20,000 bases of DNA, taken from the IMG/VR virus record IMGVR_UViG_3300032117_000007; one strand, 5' to 3'. The notes beneath the pieces are model-generated. The model searched no databases, was not told the DNA's origin, and saw only the letters and a program-made list of their open reading frames with translations. This document shows positions 2,422-10,557 of this stretch, piece after piece. Each line of letters begins with the position of its first letter. Positions within the stretch are counted from its first letter, which is position 1. A program made the translations under genes and the position numbers. This stretch comes from an uncultured virus (IMG/VR IMGVR_UViG_3300032117_000007) (taxonomy: Duplodnaviria; Heunggongvirae; Uroviricota; Caudoviricetes).

Positions 2422-3465
2422 ATGTCTGATATAAAAGCACGTCTTATTAAGAATTCAACGATTGATGCAACTGCAACTCTTACGGACAGTAAGGTATACG
2501 GCAAGAAGGATATGATTCCAACTACTGTTCCGCTGATTAATGTTGCCCTTTCCGGTTCCATTGATGGTGGTCTCATGCCAGGTCTTACTGTTCTTGCAGC
2601 ACCATCAAAGCACTTCAAGACTGCTTTTTCTCTTTTGATGGCCTCTGCTTTCCTTAAGAAATATAAGGATGGAATTATTCTATTTTATGATTCAGAATTT
2701 GGAACACCTGAATCATATTTCTCATCATTTGATATTGATATGAATTCTGTTGTTCATACTCCTATTACGGATATTGAGGAACTTAAGTTTGATATTATGA
2801 GACAACTTAAGGAAATCAAGCGTGAAGATCGTGTGATGATTGTTGTTGATTCCGTTGGCAATCTTGCATCAAAGAAGGAAGTAGATGATGCTGAGGCAGG
2901 TAAATCTGCCGCAGATATGACTCGTGCTAAGCAACTTAAGTCGCTATTCCGTATGGTGACACCACATCTTACCTTAAAAGATATTCCTATGGTTGTGGTC
3001 AATCATATCTATATGACACAAGAGATGTATTCTAAACCAATTGTGTCAGGCGGAACTGGAGTATACTACTCTGCAAATGATATTTGGATTATCGGTCGTC
3101 AACAAGATAAGGATGATAAGGATCTTTTAGGGTATCATTTTATTATCAATATTGAAAAGTCTCGGCTTGTTCGTGAAAAGTCTAAGATTCCAATTACAGT
3201 AAATTTTGATTCTGGTATCAATCGTTGGTCTGGTCTTCTTGATCTAGCGCTAGAAGGTGGATATATTGCAAAGCCCAAGAATGGTTGGTATTGCAAGGTC
3301 GATAGGACTACGGGTGAACTTGGATCAAATATGAGAGCAGGAGACTTCATTAACAATTCAGAATTCTGGAAGGATATTTTATCAACTACCGATTTTGCAA
3401 CGTGGATCAAAAATAAGTATTCTTTCTCTGATAAGAAAATTATGAATACAGAAGAAACTTTCTGA
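2422..3465 (+). CDS. uvsX: UvsX RecA-like recombinase
   Basis: INVALSG, P-loop AAPSKHFKT, FYDSEFG, Walker B VVDSVGNLASKKE, DMTRAKQLKSLFR, VSGGTG, EKSR; located between gp43 and gp41. Confidence 0.97.
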   Translation: MSDIKARLIKNSTIDATATLTDSKVYGKKDMIPTTVPLINVALSGSIDGGLMPGLTVLAAPSKHFKTAFSLLMASAFLKKYKDGIILFYDSEFGTPESYFSSFDIDMNSVVHTPITDIEELKFDIMRQLKEIKREDRVMIVVDSVGNLASKKEVDDAEAGKSAADMTRAKQLKSLFRMVTPHLTLKDIPMVVVNHIYMTQEMYSKPIVSGGTGVYYSANDIWIIGRQQDKDDKDLLGYHFIINIEKSRLVREKSKIPITVNFDSGINRWSGLLDLALEGGYIAKPKNGWYCKVDRTTGELGSNMRAGDFINNSEFWKDILSTTDFATWIKNKYSFSDKKIMNTEETF

Positions 3466-3481: not shown

Positions 3482-4885
3482 ATGAATATAGAACGAGTAG
3501 TACTTAGTAATCTGGTCTTCCGAGAAGATTATGGTCGTAAAGTAATTCCTTTTCTAAAGTCTGAGTATTTTCTTGATAATTTTGAAAAGACTTGTTTTGG
3601 GCTAATTGAAGCATATGTTCAAAAGTATAATTCATTCCCAACACAAGAAGTACTTCAGATTGAACTTAGAAACAAGGATAAAATTGACGAAACAACCTAT
3701 AAAAATTGTAAGGAAATAATTGAAAAATTTGAATTTGATCCTGAAACAAATTTAGAATGGCTTACAGAATCCACCGAAAAGTGGGTTCAAGAAAAGGCCG
3801 TATATAATGCAATTATGGCTTCAATTCAAATTCTAGATAATCAAGATAAAATCAAATCAAAAGGTTCTATTCCTCAACTTCTTTCTGATGCTTTGGCAGT
3901 AAGTTTTGATTCTTCCATTGGTCATAACTGGGATGAGGATTCTGATGCTCGATATGAATTTTATCATCGTGTAGAAAATAAAATTCCATTTGATCTAGAA
4001 TATTTTAATTTAATAACAAAAGGTGGTCTATCAAATAAAACACTTAATGTTATACTTGGTGGCACTGGTGTTGGTAAGACACTAGTGATGTGTCATTTTG
4101 CTGCATCACATCTTTTGAAAGGTAAAAATGTTCTTTATATCACGATGGAAATGAGTGAAGAACGAATTGCAGAACGAATTGATGCTAATCTTCTTGATGT
4201 AACTATGGACGATCTTTCAGTTCTTACAAAAGAAGCATATGACAAAAAGATCAAAAGAATTTGTTCCAAGACCCCTGGAAAACTTATCATCAAGGAATAT
4301 CCAACTGCTTCTGCAGGTTCTGCAAATTTCAGGTATCTTTTAAATGAATTGAAAATTAAAAAGAACTTTAAACCAGACATCATCTATATTGATTATCTAA
4401 ACATCTGTGCCTCATCTCGATTGAAATATACATCAAATGTAAACACATACATGTATGTGAAAGCGATTGCAGAAGAACTTAGAGGTCTGGCCGTAGAGTT
4501 TGATGTGCCTATTGTCTCTGCTACTCAGACTACTCGTAGTGGTTACTCCAGTTCGGATGTTGATCTAGGTGACACTTCAGAATCATTTGGACTCCCTGCA
4601 ACTGCCGATCTAATGTTTGCTATTATGACAAATGAAGAATTGGCAGCATTAAATCAATATATGGTGAAACAACTTAAGAATCGTTACAATGATCTAAATT
4701 TCAACAAACGGTTTGTTATAGGTGTTGATAAACCTAAAATGAAACTGTATGATGTTGAACAATCTGCTCAAGAAGATATTATGGATGATAAGCCTATATT
4801 TGACAACTCTGGCTTTGGACACGAAGATTCAGAACGAGGGAAGAAGAAATCTAAGTTTTCACGAGATTTTAGGGATTTTAAATAA
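3482..4885 (+). CDS. 41: DnaB-like replicative helicase, T4 gp41-like
   Basis: Walker A GGTGVGKT, YITMEMSEE, IYIDYLNIC, AIAEELRGLA, SATQT, SESFGLPATAD, KQLKNRY. Confidence 0.97.
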   Translation: MNIERVVLSNLVFREDYGRKVIPFLKSEYFLDNFEKTCFGLIEAYVQKYNSFPTQEVLQIELRNKDKIDETTYKNCKEIIEKFEFDPETNLEWLTESTEKWVQEKAVYNAIMASIQILDNQDKIKSKGSIPQLLSDALAVSFDSSIGHNWDEDSDARYEFYHRVENKIPFDLEYFNLITKGGLSNKTLNVILGGTGVGKTLVMCHFAASHLLKGKNVLYITMEMSEERIAERIDANLLDVTMDDLSVLTKEAYDKKIKRICSKTPGKLIIKEYPTASAGSANFRYLLNELKIKKNFKPDIIYIDYLNICASSRLKYTSNVNTYMYVKAIAEELRGLAVEFDVPIVSATQTTRSGYSSSDVDLGDTSESFGLPATADLMFAIMTNEELAALNQYMVKQLKNRYNDLNFNKRFVIGVDKPKMKLYDVEQSAQEDIMDDKPIFDNSGFGHEDSERGKKKSKFSRDFRDFK

Positions 4886-5094
4886 TGGTAGACAGAGAAA
4901 GATTGTCAAAACTAATTTCATGTGCTATTCAAGATGAAATTGAAGATTTTGAAGGAGTACTTATTAGGCAAGTAACATGTGATAGAGCAGCATATCGTGT
5001 TCTTGAAGTCATCAGAAAGGAAAATTTGAATATTGTAAGATTAAATCCTGGTAACCGTGATGACCGATATAAAGATTACAAAGCTATTGAATAA
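4885..5094 (+). CDS. Hypothetical protein (69 aa)
   Basis: Start overlaps the gp41 stop (TAATG). Confidence 0.7.
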   Translation: MVDRERLSKLISCAIQDEIEDFEGVLIRQVTCDRAAYRVLEVIRKENLNIVRLNPGNRDDRYKDYKAIE

Positions 5095-5130
5095 AAAAAA
5101 TATTATTTTAAAATAATAACAATTTTATTG

Positions 5131-5138
5131 TATAAATA
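5131..5138 (+). promoter_or_regulatory. T4-type late promoter (gp55-dependent)
   Basis: Exact TATAAATA in intergenic DNA, directly upstream of the structured RNA candidate. Confidence 0.8.
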
Positions 5139-5142
5139 AATT

Positions 5143-5290
5143 CACATGAGCATACATTATGCGCTTCATGAAGCGTAAGAGGCACAGAGACTATAATAGC
5201 AAAGGAACAGTCGGGGATCATAGGTGGGGTTCCTCCCGGCATTGTATGCTTTTAAAGAAGGTCGGCTCGAAAGGGTCGACCTTTCTTTTT
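5143..5290 (+). ncRNA. Candidate structured small RNA, family unknown
   Basis: GC-richer island without a credible ORF; closing stem AGCATACA (5149-5156)/TGTATGCT (5243-5250); internal hairpins 5160-5177 and 5210-5240; own late promoter and terminator. Confidence 0.65.
5256..5290 (+). terminator. Rho-independent terminator
   Basis: GGTCGGCTC-GAAA-GGGTCGACC stem (with G-U pairs) and GNRA loop, followed by TTTCTTTTT. Confidence 0.85.
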
Positions 5291-5297
5291 ATAAATA
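5290..5297 (+). promoter_or_regulatory. T4-type late promoter overlapping the terminator U-tract
   Basis: Exact TATAAATA, 35 nt upstream of the ATG at 5333; SD AGGA at about 5321. Confidence 0.8.
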
Positions 5298-5332
5298 GAT
5301 CAAAATTCCTTTTATTGCTTAGGATGTAATTT

Positions 5333-6100
5333 ATGCTAACATTCTCTAAATTAAAAAATATTCTTTCTGAAGAATTGACACCAGATCAAAGAGAGCATTT
5401 TAATTCAATTAAAAGAGATCCTAATGCAGTTGCAGCAACTGCTCATTTTTTTGGCAAAGGTAATGATGTTGTATCAAAAGAACTTGAAGCTTATTTTGAA
5501 GAATCAGTGCAAAAAACTGCTCATTTTTTTGATGTTGACGAGACACTATTTGCACATGATCCGAAAAAATTAAGAATCCATGTTCGTGATTCAAATGGCA
5601 ATATTGTAAAAAGTTTGTCTAATCAACAATTTAATAAAAATAAATTAAATCCGGGTGAACGATACGATTTCAAGGATTTTAAATCATCTAAGAAATTTGC
5701 AAGCACTGCTAAACCAATTCCAAAAATGATCAATTTATTAAATAGATTGAAAAATTCTGGTCATAATACTTCAATACTTACTGCTCGATCAGATCTTGAT
5801 GATAAGCAAAAATTTGCTCATACGATGAAAAAATATGGTATAGATATATCTAAAACACATGTATACAGAGCAGGGAATGTTGAAGGTACTTCTACAGGTG
5901 ATAGAAAAAGAAAAGTATTATCAGATCTTATAAAGAAACATGGTTATAATGAAATTCATCTTTATGATGATGATTTGGGGAATCATGAACATTTTGCTAA
6001 ACTCAAAGAAGATCATCCAGGTGTTAGACTATATTCACATATAGTTACACATAATGATCACACAGGCCAAACAACAATTAAAACTATCAGACATCAATAG
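5333..6100 (+). CDS. HAD-superfamily phosphatase with capsid-targeting-like leader
   Basis: Motif I FDVDETL (D67/D69), motif II ILTAR (T150), motif IV LYDDD (D212-D214); N-terminus MLTFSKLKNILSEE. Confidence 0.8.
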   Translation: MLTFSKLKNILSEELTPDQREHFNSIKRDPNAVAATAHFFGKGNDVVSKELEAYFEESVQKTAHFFDVDETLFAHDPKKLRIHVRDSNGNIVKSLSNQQFNKNKLNPGERYDFKDFKSSKKFASTAKPIPKMINLLNRLKNSGHNTSILTARSDLDDKQKFAHTMKKYGIDISKTHVYRAGNVEGTSTGDRKRKVLSDLIKKHGYNEIHLYDDDLGNHEHFAKLKEDHPGVRLYSHIVTHNDHTGQTTIKTIRHQ

Positions 6101-6113
6101 GGATTGAAAATAG

Positions 6114-7109
6114 ATGTTAAAATTTACTGAATTTCAAATCATTGCAGAATCTAAAATGACGGCTTCTGGTTTTGTAGGCAATCGTCATTTTGAAAAATAT
6201 GTAAAACCATATTTGTCCGGAGCTGCTAAGCATTCAAAGCAAGGCACACATATTATGGCCTCAAAACATGATGATTTAAATGTAGGTGAACAAGTAACAT
6301 TACATTCTCATCATATTGATGATAAAGGTGTCCATCATGTAACAGTAAGTCGACCTGGCTCAAGAAAAAAAATTACTGTGCCTATTTCAAAGTTAGATAA
6401 GCCTGGGGCCCAAACAGAAAATGAAGGCCATAAGTATGAAAAACATTTTTTTAATAGATGTAGAAATATAGGTCTTGTACCTCCCGGCCATAATCCTGCA
6501 GGTTCTACAGCTGGAACAGATGTCCCATTTTTAAATAAAAAGAAAGGAACAATTCATAAAGGCCGGGCTATATATAATGGTGAAGTAAAGCTAAACGAAA
6601 CCGCGGCACTTGGACAAGGTACAATTAAATTTGGAAAACATCCTAAAACAGGTAAGGTGGGATGGCATATTCCCGATGAATTACGAGATGCAAGACCAGA
6701 ATATGCTAAAGCAATAGAAGAAAGAGGTATTTTAGAATATATGAATAAACATCATCCGGATCCGGATGCAGTTGAAACTACTGCTTCAGGTAGAGCAAGA
6801 AGCATTACAATGCCACACCCGGATTTATCACCAGCTGAAGCGTATTTGAAAGATCATGATGCTGATGTTGTTCACATAGGTGAAGGTCATGGAACATATA
6901 GAGTAGGAAGTAAAGATAAAACTGGTTTTGGACTCCCAAGATTAAAAGGAAAAGGAAAATGGACCATTCGTCAAAAGCAAGAAGGTAATAAAAGATCCAG
7001 AACTGTTATGTTTCAAATTCATGGAAAACACGGTTTAATTAGAAGTCCTATAAATTTAGATCGTGATGACCATTTACAAGATTTTGCAAAACATTTAGGA
7101 CATTCATAA
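6114..7109 (+). CDS. His-rich protein with possible PD-(D/E)XK nuclease-like domain and capsid-targeting-like leader
   Basis: N-terminus MLKFTEFQIIAE; candidate catalytic pattern E109 (GHKYEK), D136 (AGTDV), E157-x-K159 (NGEVK). The ORF is secure, the function tentative. Confidence 0.55.
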   Translation: MLKFTEFQIIAESKMTASGFVGNRHFEKYVKPYLSGAAKHSKQGTHIMASKHDDLNVGEQVTLHSHHIDDKGVHHVTVSRPGSRKKITVPISKLDKPGAQTENEGHKYEKHFFNRCRNIGLVPPGHNPAGSTAGTDVPFLNKKKGTIHKGRAIYNGEVKLNETAALGQGTIKFGKHPKTGKVGWHIPDELRDARPEYAKAIEERGILEYMNKHHPDPDAVETTASGRARSITMPHPDLSPAEAYLKDHDADVVHIGEGHGTYRVGSKDKTGFGLPRLKGKGKWTIRQKQEGNKRSRTVMFQIHGKHGLIRSPINLDRDDHLQDFAKHLGHS

Positions 7110-7110
7110 A

Positions 7111-8340
7111 ATGTTAACATTTAGAAATTTTCTTATAGAGAATGAAGAATCTGCTACAGGTAAACCTCTCACTCATCTTCGTCATCTAGAAGATAATATT
7201 CTTTATGATGGTCATGAAGGTGTAAGAAGAGCATCAAAATTTTTAGATGATGCGCACAATCATCTTCTTGGGAAAGAAACATCAACTCATATTTCAACAA
7301 AATATGATGGTGCTCCAAGTATAGTATATGGAACACATCCAGAAACTGGAAAATTCTTTGTAGCTTCCAAATCTGCTTTTAATAAAAATCCAAAAATCAA
7401 TTATACAAATGAAGATATTGAACGAAACCATGGTCATGCCCCAGGTTTGGTGTCAAAACTCAAAGAAGCACTATATCATCTTCCAAAAATTATGCCAAAG
7501 ACTGGTGGTGTTTTTCAAGGTGATATGATGCATGGAAAGGGTGATATTAAGAAAAATGGTGGAAAGATTAGTTTTACTCCAAATACAATTACATATTCTA
7601 CTGATAAAAATTCTGCTGAAGGAAGAAAAGTAACAAATTCAAAAATCGGTGTTGTAATGCATACAGAATATAAAGGTAAAGGGCCTTTACAGAATATGTC
7701 GGCAACACCTTTGAGTGCCAAAAGAAGAGCTGAATTCATAGATCATCCGGATGTTAATAATATTGATCCTACTCAAAAGGTGAATACAAACAATTATACT
7801 CCAGAAGAACAAAAGAAATTTGCTATGCATAAAGAAGCAATTAGAAAAACATATCAGAGTATGAAGCCTGAAGCATTTGAGGCAATTCATGGTCATGAAG
7901 CGGCTTTGGAATCTCATGTAAATGATCAAGTACGAAAAGGTGGTAAACCTTCTACTGAAGGTTATATGAATTTCCTAAAAGATCGACATGAAAAGGAAAT
8001 TTCTAAACTTAAAACACAAGCAGCGATTGATAGAAAGAAACAAGATTTCTCTAAGAAATTAGATCACGTGAATGCCAACAAAGAACATTTCAAGAAAATA
8101 CTTGATCTTCATCATCATTTCCAAGAAGCCAAAAATATTCTTACTGGTGTAATGGCCAAAAATAGTAAGTTTGAGAATAGCATCAATGGAAAACCTACTT
8201 TACCTGAAGGTGCTGTTGCGGTTGATAAAGAAGGTAATATGACCAAGTTTGTAAATCGTGGTGAAGGTGGGTTTGCTCAGGCCAATTTGACTGGTTCTGG
8301 TGCATTTCAGAAGAAAGGGACTTCTGATGCTTCTAAGTAG
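7111..8340 (+). CDS. Conserved T4-like phage protein with ATP-dependent ligase/nucleotidyltransferase motifs (resembles DUF6267 from memory)
   Basis: THLRHLED, motif I TKYDG (K64), FFVASKS, QGD (136-138), FTPNTITY, motif IV EGAV (E366), motif V KFVNR (K379); N-terminus MLTFRNFLIE. Confidence 0.7.
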   Translation: MLTFRNFLIENEESATGKPLTHLRHLEDNILYDGHEGVRRASKFLDDAHNHLLGKETSTHISTKYDGAPSIVYGTHPETGKFFVASKSAFNKNPKINYTNEDIERNHGHAPGLVSKLKEALYHLPKIMPKTGGVFQGDMMHGKGDIKKNGGKISFTPNTITYSTDKNSAEGRKVTNSKIGVVMHTEYKGKGPLQNMSATPLSAKRRAEFIDHPDVNNIDPTQKVNTNNYTPEEQKKFAMHKEAIRKTYQSMKPEAFEAIHGHEAALESHVNDQVRKGGKPSTEGYMNFLKDRHEKEISKLKTQAAIDRKKQDFSKKLDHVNANKEHFKKILDLHHHFQEAKNILTGVMAKNSKFENSINGKPTLPEGAVAVDKEGNMTKFVNRGEGGFAQANLTGSGAFQKKGTSDASK

Positions 8341-8965
8341 AATTAAAAGGATCATTTTTGAATCATATGAAAAGCATCATGTAACTGCTCCTTCCGTCCG
8401 ATTCCAACCTCCTACGGAAGGTCATGGAGAAGTTATTGATACAGTAAAGAGTGAAGCAAAAAAAGTTGGTGGTAGTCATTCAATAGTACTATCACATTCT
8501 CATGATGCTAAAAATCCACTCACACCTGAACAAAAACTCAAACATGCCAAAAGAGCATGGCCAGATATGAATATATCTACATCATCTGTTGAACAACCAA
8601 CTTTGCTTCATCATCTTGCAAATCTTCACAAACAAGGTGTAACACATGTAACTGTTGTTGGTGGTCAAGATAGAGTGGAAGGATTCCGGAATCTCATACA
8701 CAAGTATAATGGACAAACTGGTGCCCATGGCTATTATAATTTTAAAGGGATCAATGTTGTATCGGCAGGTGAAAGAGATCCAGACGCGGAAGATGTAACA
8801 GGTATTTCCGGAACCAAAATGAGAGCCGCGGCAGAAAGGGGTGATAAAGAAACATTTCATGCTGGAGCACCATCAAATATGACACCAGATCAAAAAGATG
8901 AAATGATGAGAGATGTTCAGAATGGTATGAAAAAGTTTGAAAAGAAAAAAATAAGTAAAAAATAG
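8327..8965 (+). CDS. Cytidylyltransferase-like (HxGH-family) nucleotidyltransferase
   Basis: RFQPPTEGH, KNPL, VGGQDRV, SAGERDPD, ISGTKMR; the ATG at 8327 follows SD AAGGGA and overlaps the end of the upstream gene. Confidence 0.85.
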   Translation: MLLSRIKRIIFESYEKHHVTAPSVRFQPPTEGHGEVIDTVKSEAKKVGGSHSIVLSHSHDAKNPLTPEQKLKHAKRAWPDMNISTSSVEQPTLLHHLANLHKQGVTHVTVVGGQDRVEGFRNLIHKYNGQTGAHGYYNFKGINVVSAGERDPDAEDVTGISGTKMRAAAERGDKETFHAGAPSNMTPDQKDEMMRDVQNGMKKFEKKKISKK

Positions 8966-10119: not shown

Positions 10120-10557
10120 ATGAATGAATTAATTGAAAAGATGAAAGTTGTGCTAGCTAGCACATTTGCTTTCTATCTAAAGAGTCATGGGTTTCATTGG
10201 AATGTTGAGGGAGTATATTTCCCTCAACTCCATTCCTTTTTTGAAACAATTTATACTGATGCATGGAAAGCAGTTGATAAAATTGCAGAAGAAATTCGTA
10301 CGTTAGATGCATATGCTCCTGGCAGTCTTTCAAGACTTCTTCAGTTGAGTGTTGTTGAAGATCAGATTAATATTCCTACAGCATTAAAAATGGTCAAAGA
10401 ACTTGAAATTAATAATAATGCTTTAATCAATGAGCTTAGAACTGCTCAAAAATTAGCAGAAAAAACTGATTGTGTAGGCCTAGCAAATTTCCTCCAAGAC
10501 AGGATCGACAAGCACCATAAGCATGCTTGGATGCTCCGGTCAATCACAAAGAGTTAA
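10120..10557 (+). CDS. dps: Dps / ferritin-like DNA-protection protein
   Basis: HGFHWNVEG..F.QLH..FE, DKIAEEIRTL, HKHAWML; length 145 aa is typical of Dps. Confidence 0.92.
   Translation: MNELIEKMKVVLASTFAFYLKSHGFHWNVEGVYFPQLHSFFETIYTDAWKAVDKIAEEIRTLDAYAPGSLSRLLQLSVVEDQINIPTALKMVKELEINNNALINELRTAQKLAEKTDCVGLANFLQDRIDKHHKHAWMLRSITKS

Follow-up and report, generated by a model that had tools for sequence, protein, structure and literature searches.

A Putative Stand-Alone RNA Gene of an Undescribed Family Downstream of gp41 in Uncultured T4-Like Viruses

Introduction

In aquatic environments, few viruses are as abundant as the T4-like phages, whose core genes are generally regarded as well charted. 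The stable RNAs C and D of T4 are located in the tRNA gene cluster, and both are presumably processed from the transcripts of this cluster rather than made from a late promoter. The pRNA of phage phi29, for which Rfam holds a family, is about 120-170 nt long, contains a multi-helix junction and acts in trans within a protein machine; we know of no T4-type packaging motor that needs an RNA. Orphan structured RNA candidates were reportedly collected through comparative genomics by Weinberg and co-workers in 2010. Time and again, orphan RNAs that combine an invariant junction with free peripheral stems have been shown to sense ligands, to act as ribozymes or to partner with proteins. An intergenic screen of IMG/VR lists 10,006 unnamed candidates for structured RNAs (Fremin, Bhatt and Kyrpides, 2023; PMC10690425).

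Here, we describe an RNA unit at positions 5131-5289 of a window (the whole stretch of DNA that was analysed, 20,000 nt) which is part of a 31.4-kb record of an uncultured virus. Judged by comparison with related loci, this unit is very likely a genuine RNA gene that stands alone and belongs to an undescribed family. With RNAs C and D, which are stable, it has in common that it would be a small phage-encoded RNA of a T4-type phage; unlike these two, it has a late promoter motif, and a covariance model of the family (R1) finds nothing in the T4 genome. It resembles the phi29 pRNA as a phage-encoded RNA of similar size with a multi-helix junction, but no Rfam family was matched and no link to packaging genes was seen. 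Like riboswitch aptamers, it has its conservation centred on the junction strands while the peripheral stems vary, but it differs from them in that inspection shows no expression platform coupled to its closing stem P1, in having its own promoter motif and terminator, and in being inverted in one clade. No Rfam 15 family matches it. Like the orphan candidates of the IMG/VR screen (Fremin, Bhatt and Kyrpides, 2023; PMC10690425), it is known from sequence only, is supported by covariation and comes from contigs of viruses and metagenomes.

Gene Setting of the Locus

The replication block of the window ends with gp41, in the order DNA polymerase-UvsX-gp41, and the RNA unit is located beyond its end. 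The surrounding genes are:

48-2375, + strand, family B DNA polymerase gene
2422-3465, + strand, UvsX gene
3482-4885, + strand, gp41-type helicase gene
4885-5094, + strand, ORF of 69 aa between gp41 and the RNA unit
5333-6100, + strand, HAD-type phosphatase gene, the first gene after the RNA unit
region 5333-8965, + strand, after the phosphatase gene: genes for an unknown 331-aa protein, a DUF6267 protein and a cytidylyltransferase-like protein

The nearest cultured relatives of the gp41 are from cyanophages, with about 59-62% amino-acid identity, and the freshwater cyanophage DSL-LC02 has a similar gene order after gp41, without the RNA. Among the best 80 gp41 loci on viral contigs, the nearest one besides the window's own contig is 66% identical. 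No psbA-type gene was found on five carrier fragments, which are only 15-34% complete.

The start codon of the 69-aa ORF overlaps the gp41 stop codon (ATGA). This ORF has no match in Pfam or PHROGs, and only one of the viral contigs searched encodes it, itself with a 100%-identical gp41. The DUF6267 protein (409 aa) contains a K-Y-D-G stretch that is reminiscent of ligase motif I, and a gene for a ferritin-like protein is present at 10120-10557 (Pfam PF00210, E 1.2e-22).

Elements of the RNA Unit

The self-contained unit opens with the late-promoter motif TATAAATA, continues with an RNA core some 105 nt long (5148-5251) and closes with an intrinsic terminator; a second copy of the motif follows it. 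Its elements are:

5131-5138, + strand, T4-type late promoter motif TATAAATA, from sequence inspection
5148-5156, + strand, 5' strand of P1, which closes the whole fold
5160-5177, + strand, P2 hairpin, 7 bp, loop CAUG
5178-5186, + strand, junction strand J2/3, AGAGGCACA, in which A-G and then G-G-C-A are near-invariant
5191-5199, + strand, vestigial P3, CUA/UAG, 3 bp by our reading
5203-5209, + strand, junction strand J3/4, AGGAACA, in which GGAA is invariant
5210-5215, + strand, 5' strand of P4
5222-5234, + strand, P6 hairpin, AGG/CCU, with the 7-nt loop UGGGGUU at 5225-5231
5235-5240, + strand, 3' strand of P4
5243-5251, + strand, 3' strand of P1
5257-5289, + strand, intrinsic terminator with a 12-pair stem (5257-5284), a GAAA loop and a T-run
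5290-5297, + strand, second TATAAATA, ahead of the HAD-type phosphatase gene

An original prediction from the window alone had named most of these elements, and all those it named were recovered in place or at most one base away. This applies to both copies of TATAAATA, including the one ahead of the downstream genes; the first copy is positioned as in T4-type late units, shortly upstream of the presumed transcript start. The perfect 8-bp long-range stem is formed by AGCATACA (5149-5156) and TGTATGCT (5243-5250) and is extended by G5148-U5251 as a ninth pair, and the hairpin at 5160-5177 was confirmed as P2. For the stem proposed at 5210-5216/5234-5240, the six pairs 5210-5215/5235-5240 stand, but the seventh (5216/5234) competes with a pair of P6. 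In the window's P3 the family model finds no standard pairs. The proposed GNRA-loop terminator is indeed a G+C-rich hairpin followed by a T-run, as is characteristic of intrinsic terminators, and three terminator-like sites are present in 4700-5700, against 0.2 in shuffles. Another terminator-like hairpin with a T-run, at 5426-5442 within the HAD phosphatase ORF, is probably due to chance. The motif TATAAATA occurs only twice in the 20-kb window, both times on the + strand and flanking the RNA gene; as 1.64 copies are expected by chance, the two copies alone are not significant.

When folded as a single sequence, 5143-5292 reaches -47.8 kcal/mol (z -4.27; 0/200 shuffles as good), a signal that is mostly due to the terminator, and the core alone (5145-5253) has a z of -0.95, with 32/200 shuffles as good. 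The reverse strand folds worse (-36.8 kcal/mol, z -2.70). By itself the window sequence gives partial support only; the decisive evidence is comparative.

Comparison With Described RNAs and Cultured Phages

A search of the whole window against Rfam 15 (4227 models) gave no match at the gathering threshold, and at E values up to 10 the best match in 5000-5450 was IS102, with 20.4 bits against a gathering threshold of 46. Twenty diverse members of the family, searched at E up to 1, gave four matches to four different families, all below gathering. ARAGORN detected no tRNA or tmRNA gene in the window. These negative Rfam and ARAGORN results agree with the earlier statement that the RNA matches no known tRNA, tmRNA, riboswitch or ribozyme.

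Six family variants had no BLAST match in 50,697 GenBank phage records at E limits of 1e-5 (one query), 1e-3 (two) or 1e-2 (three), although BLAST would fail to detect distant members. R1 matched none of nine whole phage records (DLP6, DSL-LC02, two 'Marine virus AG-345' records, T4, HTVC008M, S-PM2, S-CRM01 and KVP40), the best chance-level scores being 10.9 and 14.9 bits. The RNA was also absent (0/5) from related viral records without a match near gp41, two of which are 100% complete (176 and 180 kb).

Full-text literature searches found no description of this RNA. The words 'helicase', 'T4-like', 'late promoter' and 'DnaB' do not occur in the text of Fremin et al., and the core motif was not found in four supplementary files of that study (PMC10690425). 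The family may already sit, unnamed, among the candidates of this 2023 catalogue.

Collection and Distribution of the Family

Short-word BLAST among gp41 loci showed that several of them share AGGTGGGGTTCCTC without any mismatch, a short way past the end of gp41. These loci each have TATAAATA upstream, a closing stem that is different yet complementary, and a terminator. This 14-mer of the window is present at at least 119 loci on viral contigs. Model R1 was made from 40 trimmed sequences, with a structure written from inspection; among the 119 matches listed for the 14-mer, 55 score between 53.9 and 96.4 bits with R1 and the remainder 22.6 bits or less. With scores of 57.1 bits (R1) and 64.1 bits (the wider model R2), the window falls within the family.

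R1 matches 10 of the 80 sources built around gp41 (the best 80), the window included, and R2 finds no additional members among these 80 loci. Besides the window there are 79 gp41 loci; 63 of them extend for 1000 nt or more past gp41, and 7 of these 63 contain the RNA. Carrier records have a single copy each (5/5). A stricter gapped pattern gave at least 118 metagenome loci. Among the databases searched, contigs of viruses and metagenomes are the sole source of the family. When the same strict pattern, which divergent copies would escape, was applied to 185,579 species genomes of bacteria and archaea, seven loci were found and rejected, since none looks like a member and all are in apparently coding DNA; they score 12.4-25.7 bits with R2, partly from the pattern itself.

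One of the ten R1 matches, at L054:2556-2661, is a weak and possibly divergent copy (16.9 bits with R1, 27.4 bits with R2). The loop and GGAA are retained in it, but the AG-GGCA strand is missing, as is any TATAAATA in the nearest 60 nt.

Conserved and Covarying Structure

The comparative alignment supports a fold consisting of a four-way junction of P1-P4 plus the small hairpin P6. Alignment A5 comprises 90 representatives (89 distinct), aligned with R2. Standard pairs make up 92.3% of its 2394 pair cells, against 66.6% in shuffles, and when the 3' partner is slid by 1-3 columns only 31-51% (51.4% at most) remain paired. All 28 pairs change on both sides, in 614 cells compared to 180 in shuffles, and the covariation score of 0.704 (vs 0.231) is reached by 0/500 shuffles; the sequences are related, so that the shuffle controls overstate significance. 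The individual stems are all paired in most cells and show two-sided changes in each of their model pairs: P1 (93.7% of cells; 7/7 pairs), P2 (85.9%; 8/8), P3 (84.3%; 4/4), P4 (99.8%; 6/6) and the P6 stem (99.6%; 3/3). An earlier alignment of 63 sequences (A4) gives the same picture, both alignments being fitted to the model structure, so that their counts lean towards it. In a plain MAFFT alignment made without structure fitting, P4 is intact, being broken in 0/42 sequences. The original prediction had pointed to related regions downstream of gp41 as the place where conserved, covarying stems should be present; these were looked for and found (A5, 28/28 pairs).

G-U pairs are frequent, reaching 26/89 at one P4 pair and 37/89 at one P1 pair. 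On the opposite strand each of these would be an A-C mismatch, indicating that the fold belongs to this strand as RNA. The peripheral parts differ between lineages. P5 is an extra hairpin inside P4 that is present in about 40% of representatives (28/62 distinct A4 rows) and absent in the window. P3 is a long hairpin in some groups, is longer in most relatives than in the window and is nearly lost in the window's group.

A crossing pairing of AGGAAC with GTTCCT had been proposed as a pseudoknot or switch. Both strings are present (5203-5208 and 5229-5234), but the pairing is not conserved and does not covary: although GGAAY/GUUCC fits 96% of cells on paper, two-sided changes are seen at none of its pairs, and it was therefore rejected as a conserved helix. 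GGAA never varies, and where the 3' strand of P6 varies the proposed crossing pairs are simply lost, so that the outer pair is open in 9/89 and the next in 3/89 sequences, where P6 changes. There may be a two-pair A-U contact between the GGAA strand and the P6 loop.

The unit had also been described as being without a credible ORF. This calls for a caveat, as a 56-aa ORF (5159-5329, + strand) and a 44-aa ORF (5108-5242, - strand) overlap it in the window. Across the family, however, any given frame, counted relative to the invariant core, is free of stops in at most 28 of 63 members, and the lengths of the core show no preference for one class modulo 3 (25, 20 and 18 of the 63 members). A protein-coding reading was rejected because no frame is open in more than 28/63 members and the lengths do not vary in threes.

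Invariant Core of the RNA

The unpaired nucleotides of the core are strongly conserved. In A5, the P6 loop UGGGGUU is identical in 90/90 sequences and GGAA of J3/4 in 90/90, while the J2/3 columns have AG in 87/90, GG in 89/90 and CA in 90/90; every collection scan used family-derived patterns, so that the invariance of each anchor is partly ascertainment, which was checked solely by crossing one anchor against the other. The conserved columns of J2/3 lay outside the first search pattern. In the first sets the loop region had served as the anchor, and GGAA was found in 62/62 sequences; the invariance of the loop itself meant little in these sets and a scan with a pattern of junction motifs only was therefore made. 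This second anchor, AAGAGGCAAG...GGAATAG, contains two junction motifs and does not include the loop. It found UGGGGUU at the right downstream distance in 70 of 117 loci, and the remaining 47 mostly look like chance matches in coding DNA. The second-anchor set adds 27 new clusters at 93% identity, all of which keep the loop; conversely, the loop-anchored set keeps AG-GGCA and GGAA. The stem below the loop occurs in nine forms (AGG/CCU, CGG/CCG, CCG/CGG, CAG/CUG, UGG/CCA, GGG/CCC, CAC/GUG, CCC/GGG and UAG/CUA), and all nine carry the unchanged UGGGGUU loop.

Promoter Motif, Terminator and Orientation

An exact TATAAATA is located within 60 nt upstream of the core in 56/63 representatives, and six of the other seven carry the near variants CATAAATA, GATAAATA or CTAAATA. 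The gap between TATAAATA and the start of the model is 6-15 nt in 53/56. T4 late promoters direct a transcript start about 6 nt downstream of the motif. Taken with this spacing rule, the gap suggests that the RNA begins at P1 or a few bases before it, and in the window its 5' end would be near 5144, about 6 nt past TATAAATA. Downstream, a terminator-like hairpin with a T-run was detected in 55/63 representatives by a crude script, which asked for a hairpin of -8 kcal/mol or lower and a T-run in the 90 nt that follow. The promoter motif, the fold and the terminator are thus conserved together as one unit. In the window's nearest subgroup (L116, L200 and L119), inspection by eye also found a late motif right after the terminator. 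Two lineages with the small protein described below and without the RNA, L075 (4030-4075) and L013 (3050-3095), have TATAAATA directly before the next gene, at the site where other lineages have the RNA unit.

The unit is co-directional with gp41 in the window and in L070, L032, L025, L018, L034, L337, L338, L340 and L341. In L339 it is on the strand opposite gp41 and convergent with gp41 and a small ORF, with a shared terminator between them, and gp41 and RNA are also convergent in five more records of this subgroup (5/5), giving 6/6 checked in the clade. As inversion would part a leader from the gene that it serves, this orientation argues that the unit stands alone. The original proposal of a free-standing, structured RNA of about 150 nt with a late-promoter motif, and not a leader, is upheld insofar as the unit is conserved and inverted in one clade; its transcription, late timing and action in trans are predicted from sequence features, the timing solely from the promoter motif.

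Neighboring Small Protein

A small protein of about 60-100 aa with the C-terminal motif N-[FL]-G-x-G-F-x-G-x-T-P-x-F adjoins the RNA in 47/90 representatives (L070:4375-4620, L018:3933-4148, L034:3400-3603, L339:5794-5970 and 43 further loci). In 38/90 the distance from the end of its gene to the RNA core downstream is 44-89 nt, and in 9/90, which belong to the inverted clade, the gene is convergent just past the 3' end of the RNA. It is absent from the window, L032 and L337. Among 79 gp41 loci, the protein is present in 5/9 RNA carriers and 3/70 non-carriers. One of these non-carriers, L030, ends 110 nt after the protein motif and encodes a protein that differs in 1 of 68 residues from that of the carrier L034; in L013 and L075 the protein is present and the RNA truly absent.

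The proteins with the invariant N-[FL]-G-x-G-F-x-G-x-T-P motif are an undescribed family. They have no Pfam match above the cut-off and one weak match in PHROGs (phrog_29065, unknown function, E 0.0083), and profile matches in the PDB were dismissed as spurious hits to designer repeat proteins. An AlphaFold model (pLDDT 83.1) predicts three strands and a helix, and has no Foldseek match at E of 0.001 or lower. The small protein is a candidate partner of the RNA; the adjacency of the two may also be plain synteny.

Possible Function of the RNA

In the proposed scheme, the late transcription machinery would start a few bases past TATAAATA and the transcript would fold into a four-way junction, closed by P1, from which P2, P3 and P4 radiate. 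P4 would bear P6 and, in many relatives, also the extra hairpin P5. The intrinsic terminator would release an RNA of about 145 nt, the ends of which would be held together by P1 and the 3' end capped by the terminator hairpin. With weaker support, such an RNA could act in trans through its three-dimensional core, formed by the near-invariant junction strands AG-GGCA and GGAA and by the invariant UGGGGUU loop. A protein or a small ligand might be bound by this core, which would then neither engage in long antisense pairing nor serve as a leader.

The combination of invariant junction nucleotides and heptaloop with variable peripheral stems makes binding of a protein or ligand through a tertiary fold our best guess. 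This pattern of conservation is typical of RNAs with a tertiary fold and not of typical antisense regulators, and on this basis the other explanations are ranked lower. We somewhat favor, on sequence grounds, the reading that the unit is a complete gene for a small, structured non-coding RNA acting in trans by binding a protein or ligand. A narrower version, that it represents a new class of trans-acting late RNA with an aptamer-like or protein-binding core without platform, working as a ribonucleoprotein (perhaps with the small protein) or as a sponge or decoy for a host factor or a signalling molecule, is offered tentatively.

Alternatively, the RNA could be a base-pairing sRNA, in which UGGGGUU, GGAAUAG and AGAGGCAAG are seeds on a conserved phage or host RNA whose translation or stability is altered late in infection. 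Its own promoter motif and terminator are in keeping with this, as is the invariant 7-nt loop on a variable stem, since kissing-loop seeds are often presented as hairpin loops; to our reading, the purine-rich conserved strands resemble a Shine-Dalgarno-like sequence. However, the conservation is centred on a multi-helix junction with peripheral stems that are variable or optional, and no target is evident in the 20-kb window: the complement of the loop, AACCCCA, occurs three times (1.55 expected; 37/200 shuffles have as many), one of which is the RNA's own opposite strand. We consider this explanation unlikely.

Still less probable is a cis-acting riboswitch or attenuator, in which the state of an aptamer sets terminator read-through into the downstream genes. 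Its junction-centred conservation is aptamer-like, the terminator is located about 2-15 nt past P1, and genes on the same strand follow in most lineages. A riboswitch lies upstream of the gene that it controls and on the same strand, but in the inverted clade the unit is convergent with gp41 and has no gene downstream in 6/6 checked records. Moreover, a fresh TATAAATA follows the terminator in the window and the nearest subgroup, and on inspection the terminator stem is clear of the 3' strand of P1, with no anti-terminator pairing spotted.

The reading as a ribozyme of a new class, self-cleaving or otherwise, has a slightly lower standing again. Compact multi-helix junctions with strictly conserved unpaired nucleotides would suit a catalytic RNA, and small ribozymes are known to be encoded in phage and metagenome DNA. 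Against this, no Rfam 15 ribozyme is matched even at E up to 10, no cleavage site is marked in the sequence, and there is no tandem or mobile-element context.

That the unit is not an RNA gene at all, but a small protein gene or a DNA site for origin, packaging or recombination, as the two overlapping ORFs and the position at the end of the replication block might suggest, is very improbable in view of reading frames that are open in no more than 28 of the 63 members, of lengths that do not vary in threes, of compensatory changes and G-U pairs that work on one strand only, as RNA, and of a promoter motif and terminator that travel along when the unit is inverted.

Implications for T4-Like Viruses

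The family is compact (about 105 nt) and rich in natural variation, which makes the preferred reading, a trans-acting RNA that binds a protein or ligand, directly testable. The models R1 and R2 and alignment A5 would permit the annotation of the family in viromes. If the proposal is true, this RNA would be an unrecognised component of the T4-like late programme, a complex and strictly conserved RNA gene that is absent from every cultured phage tested and that many uncultured lineages retain next to their replication genes.
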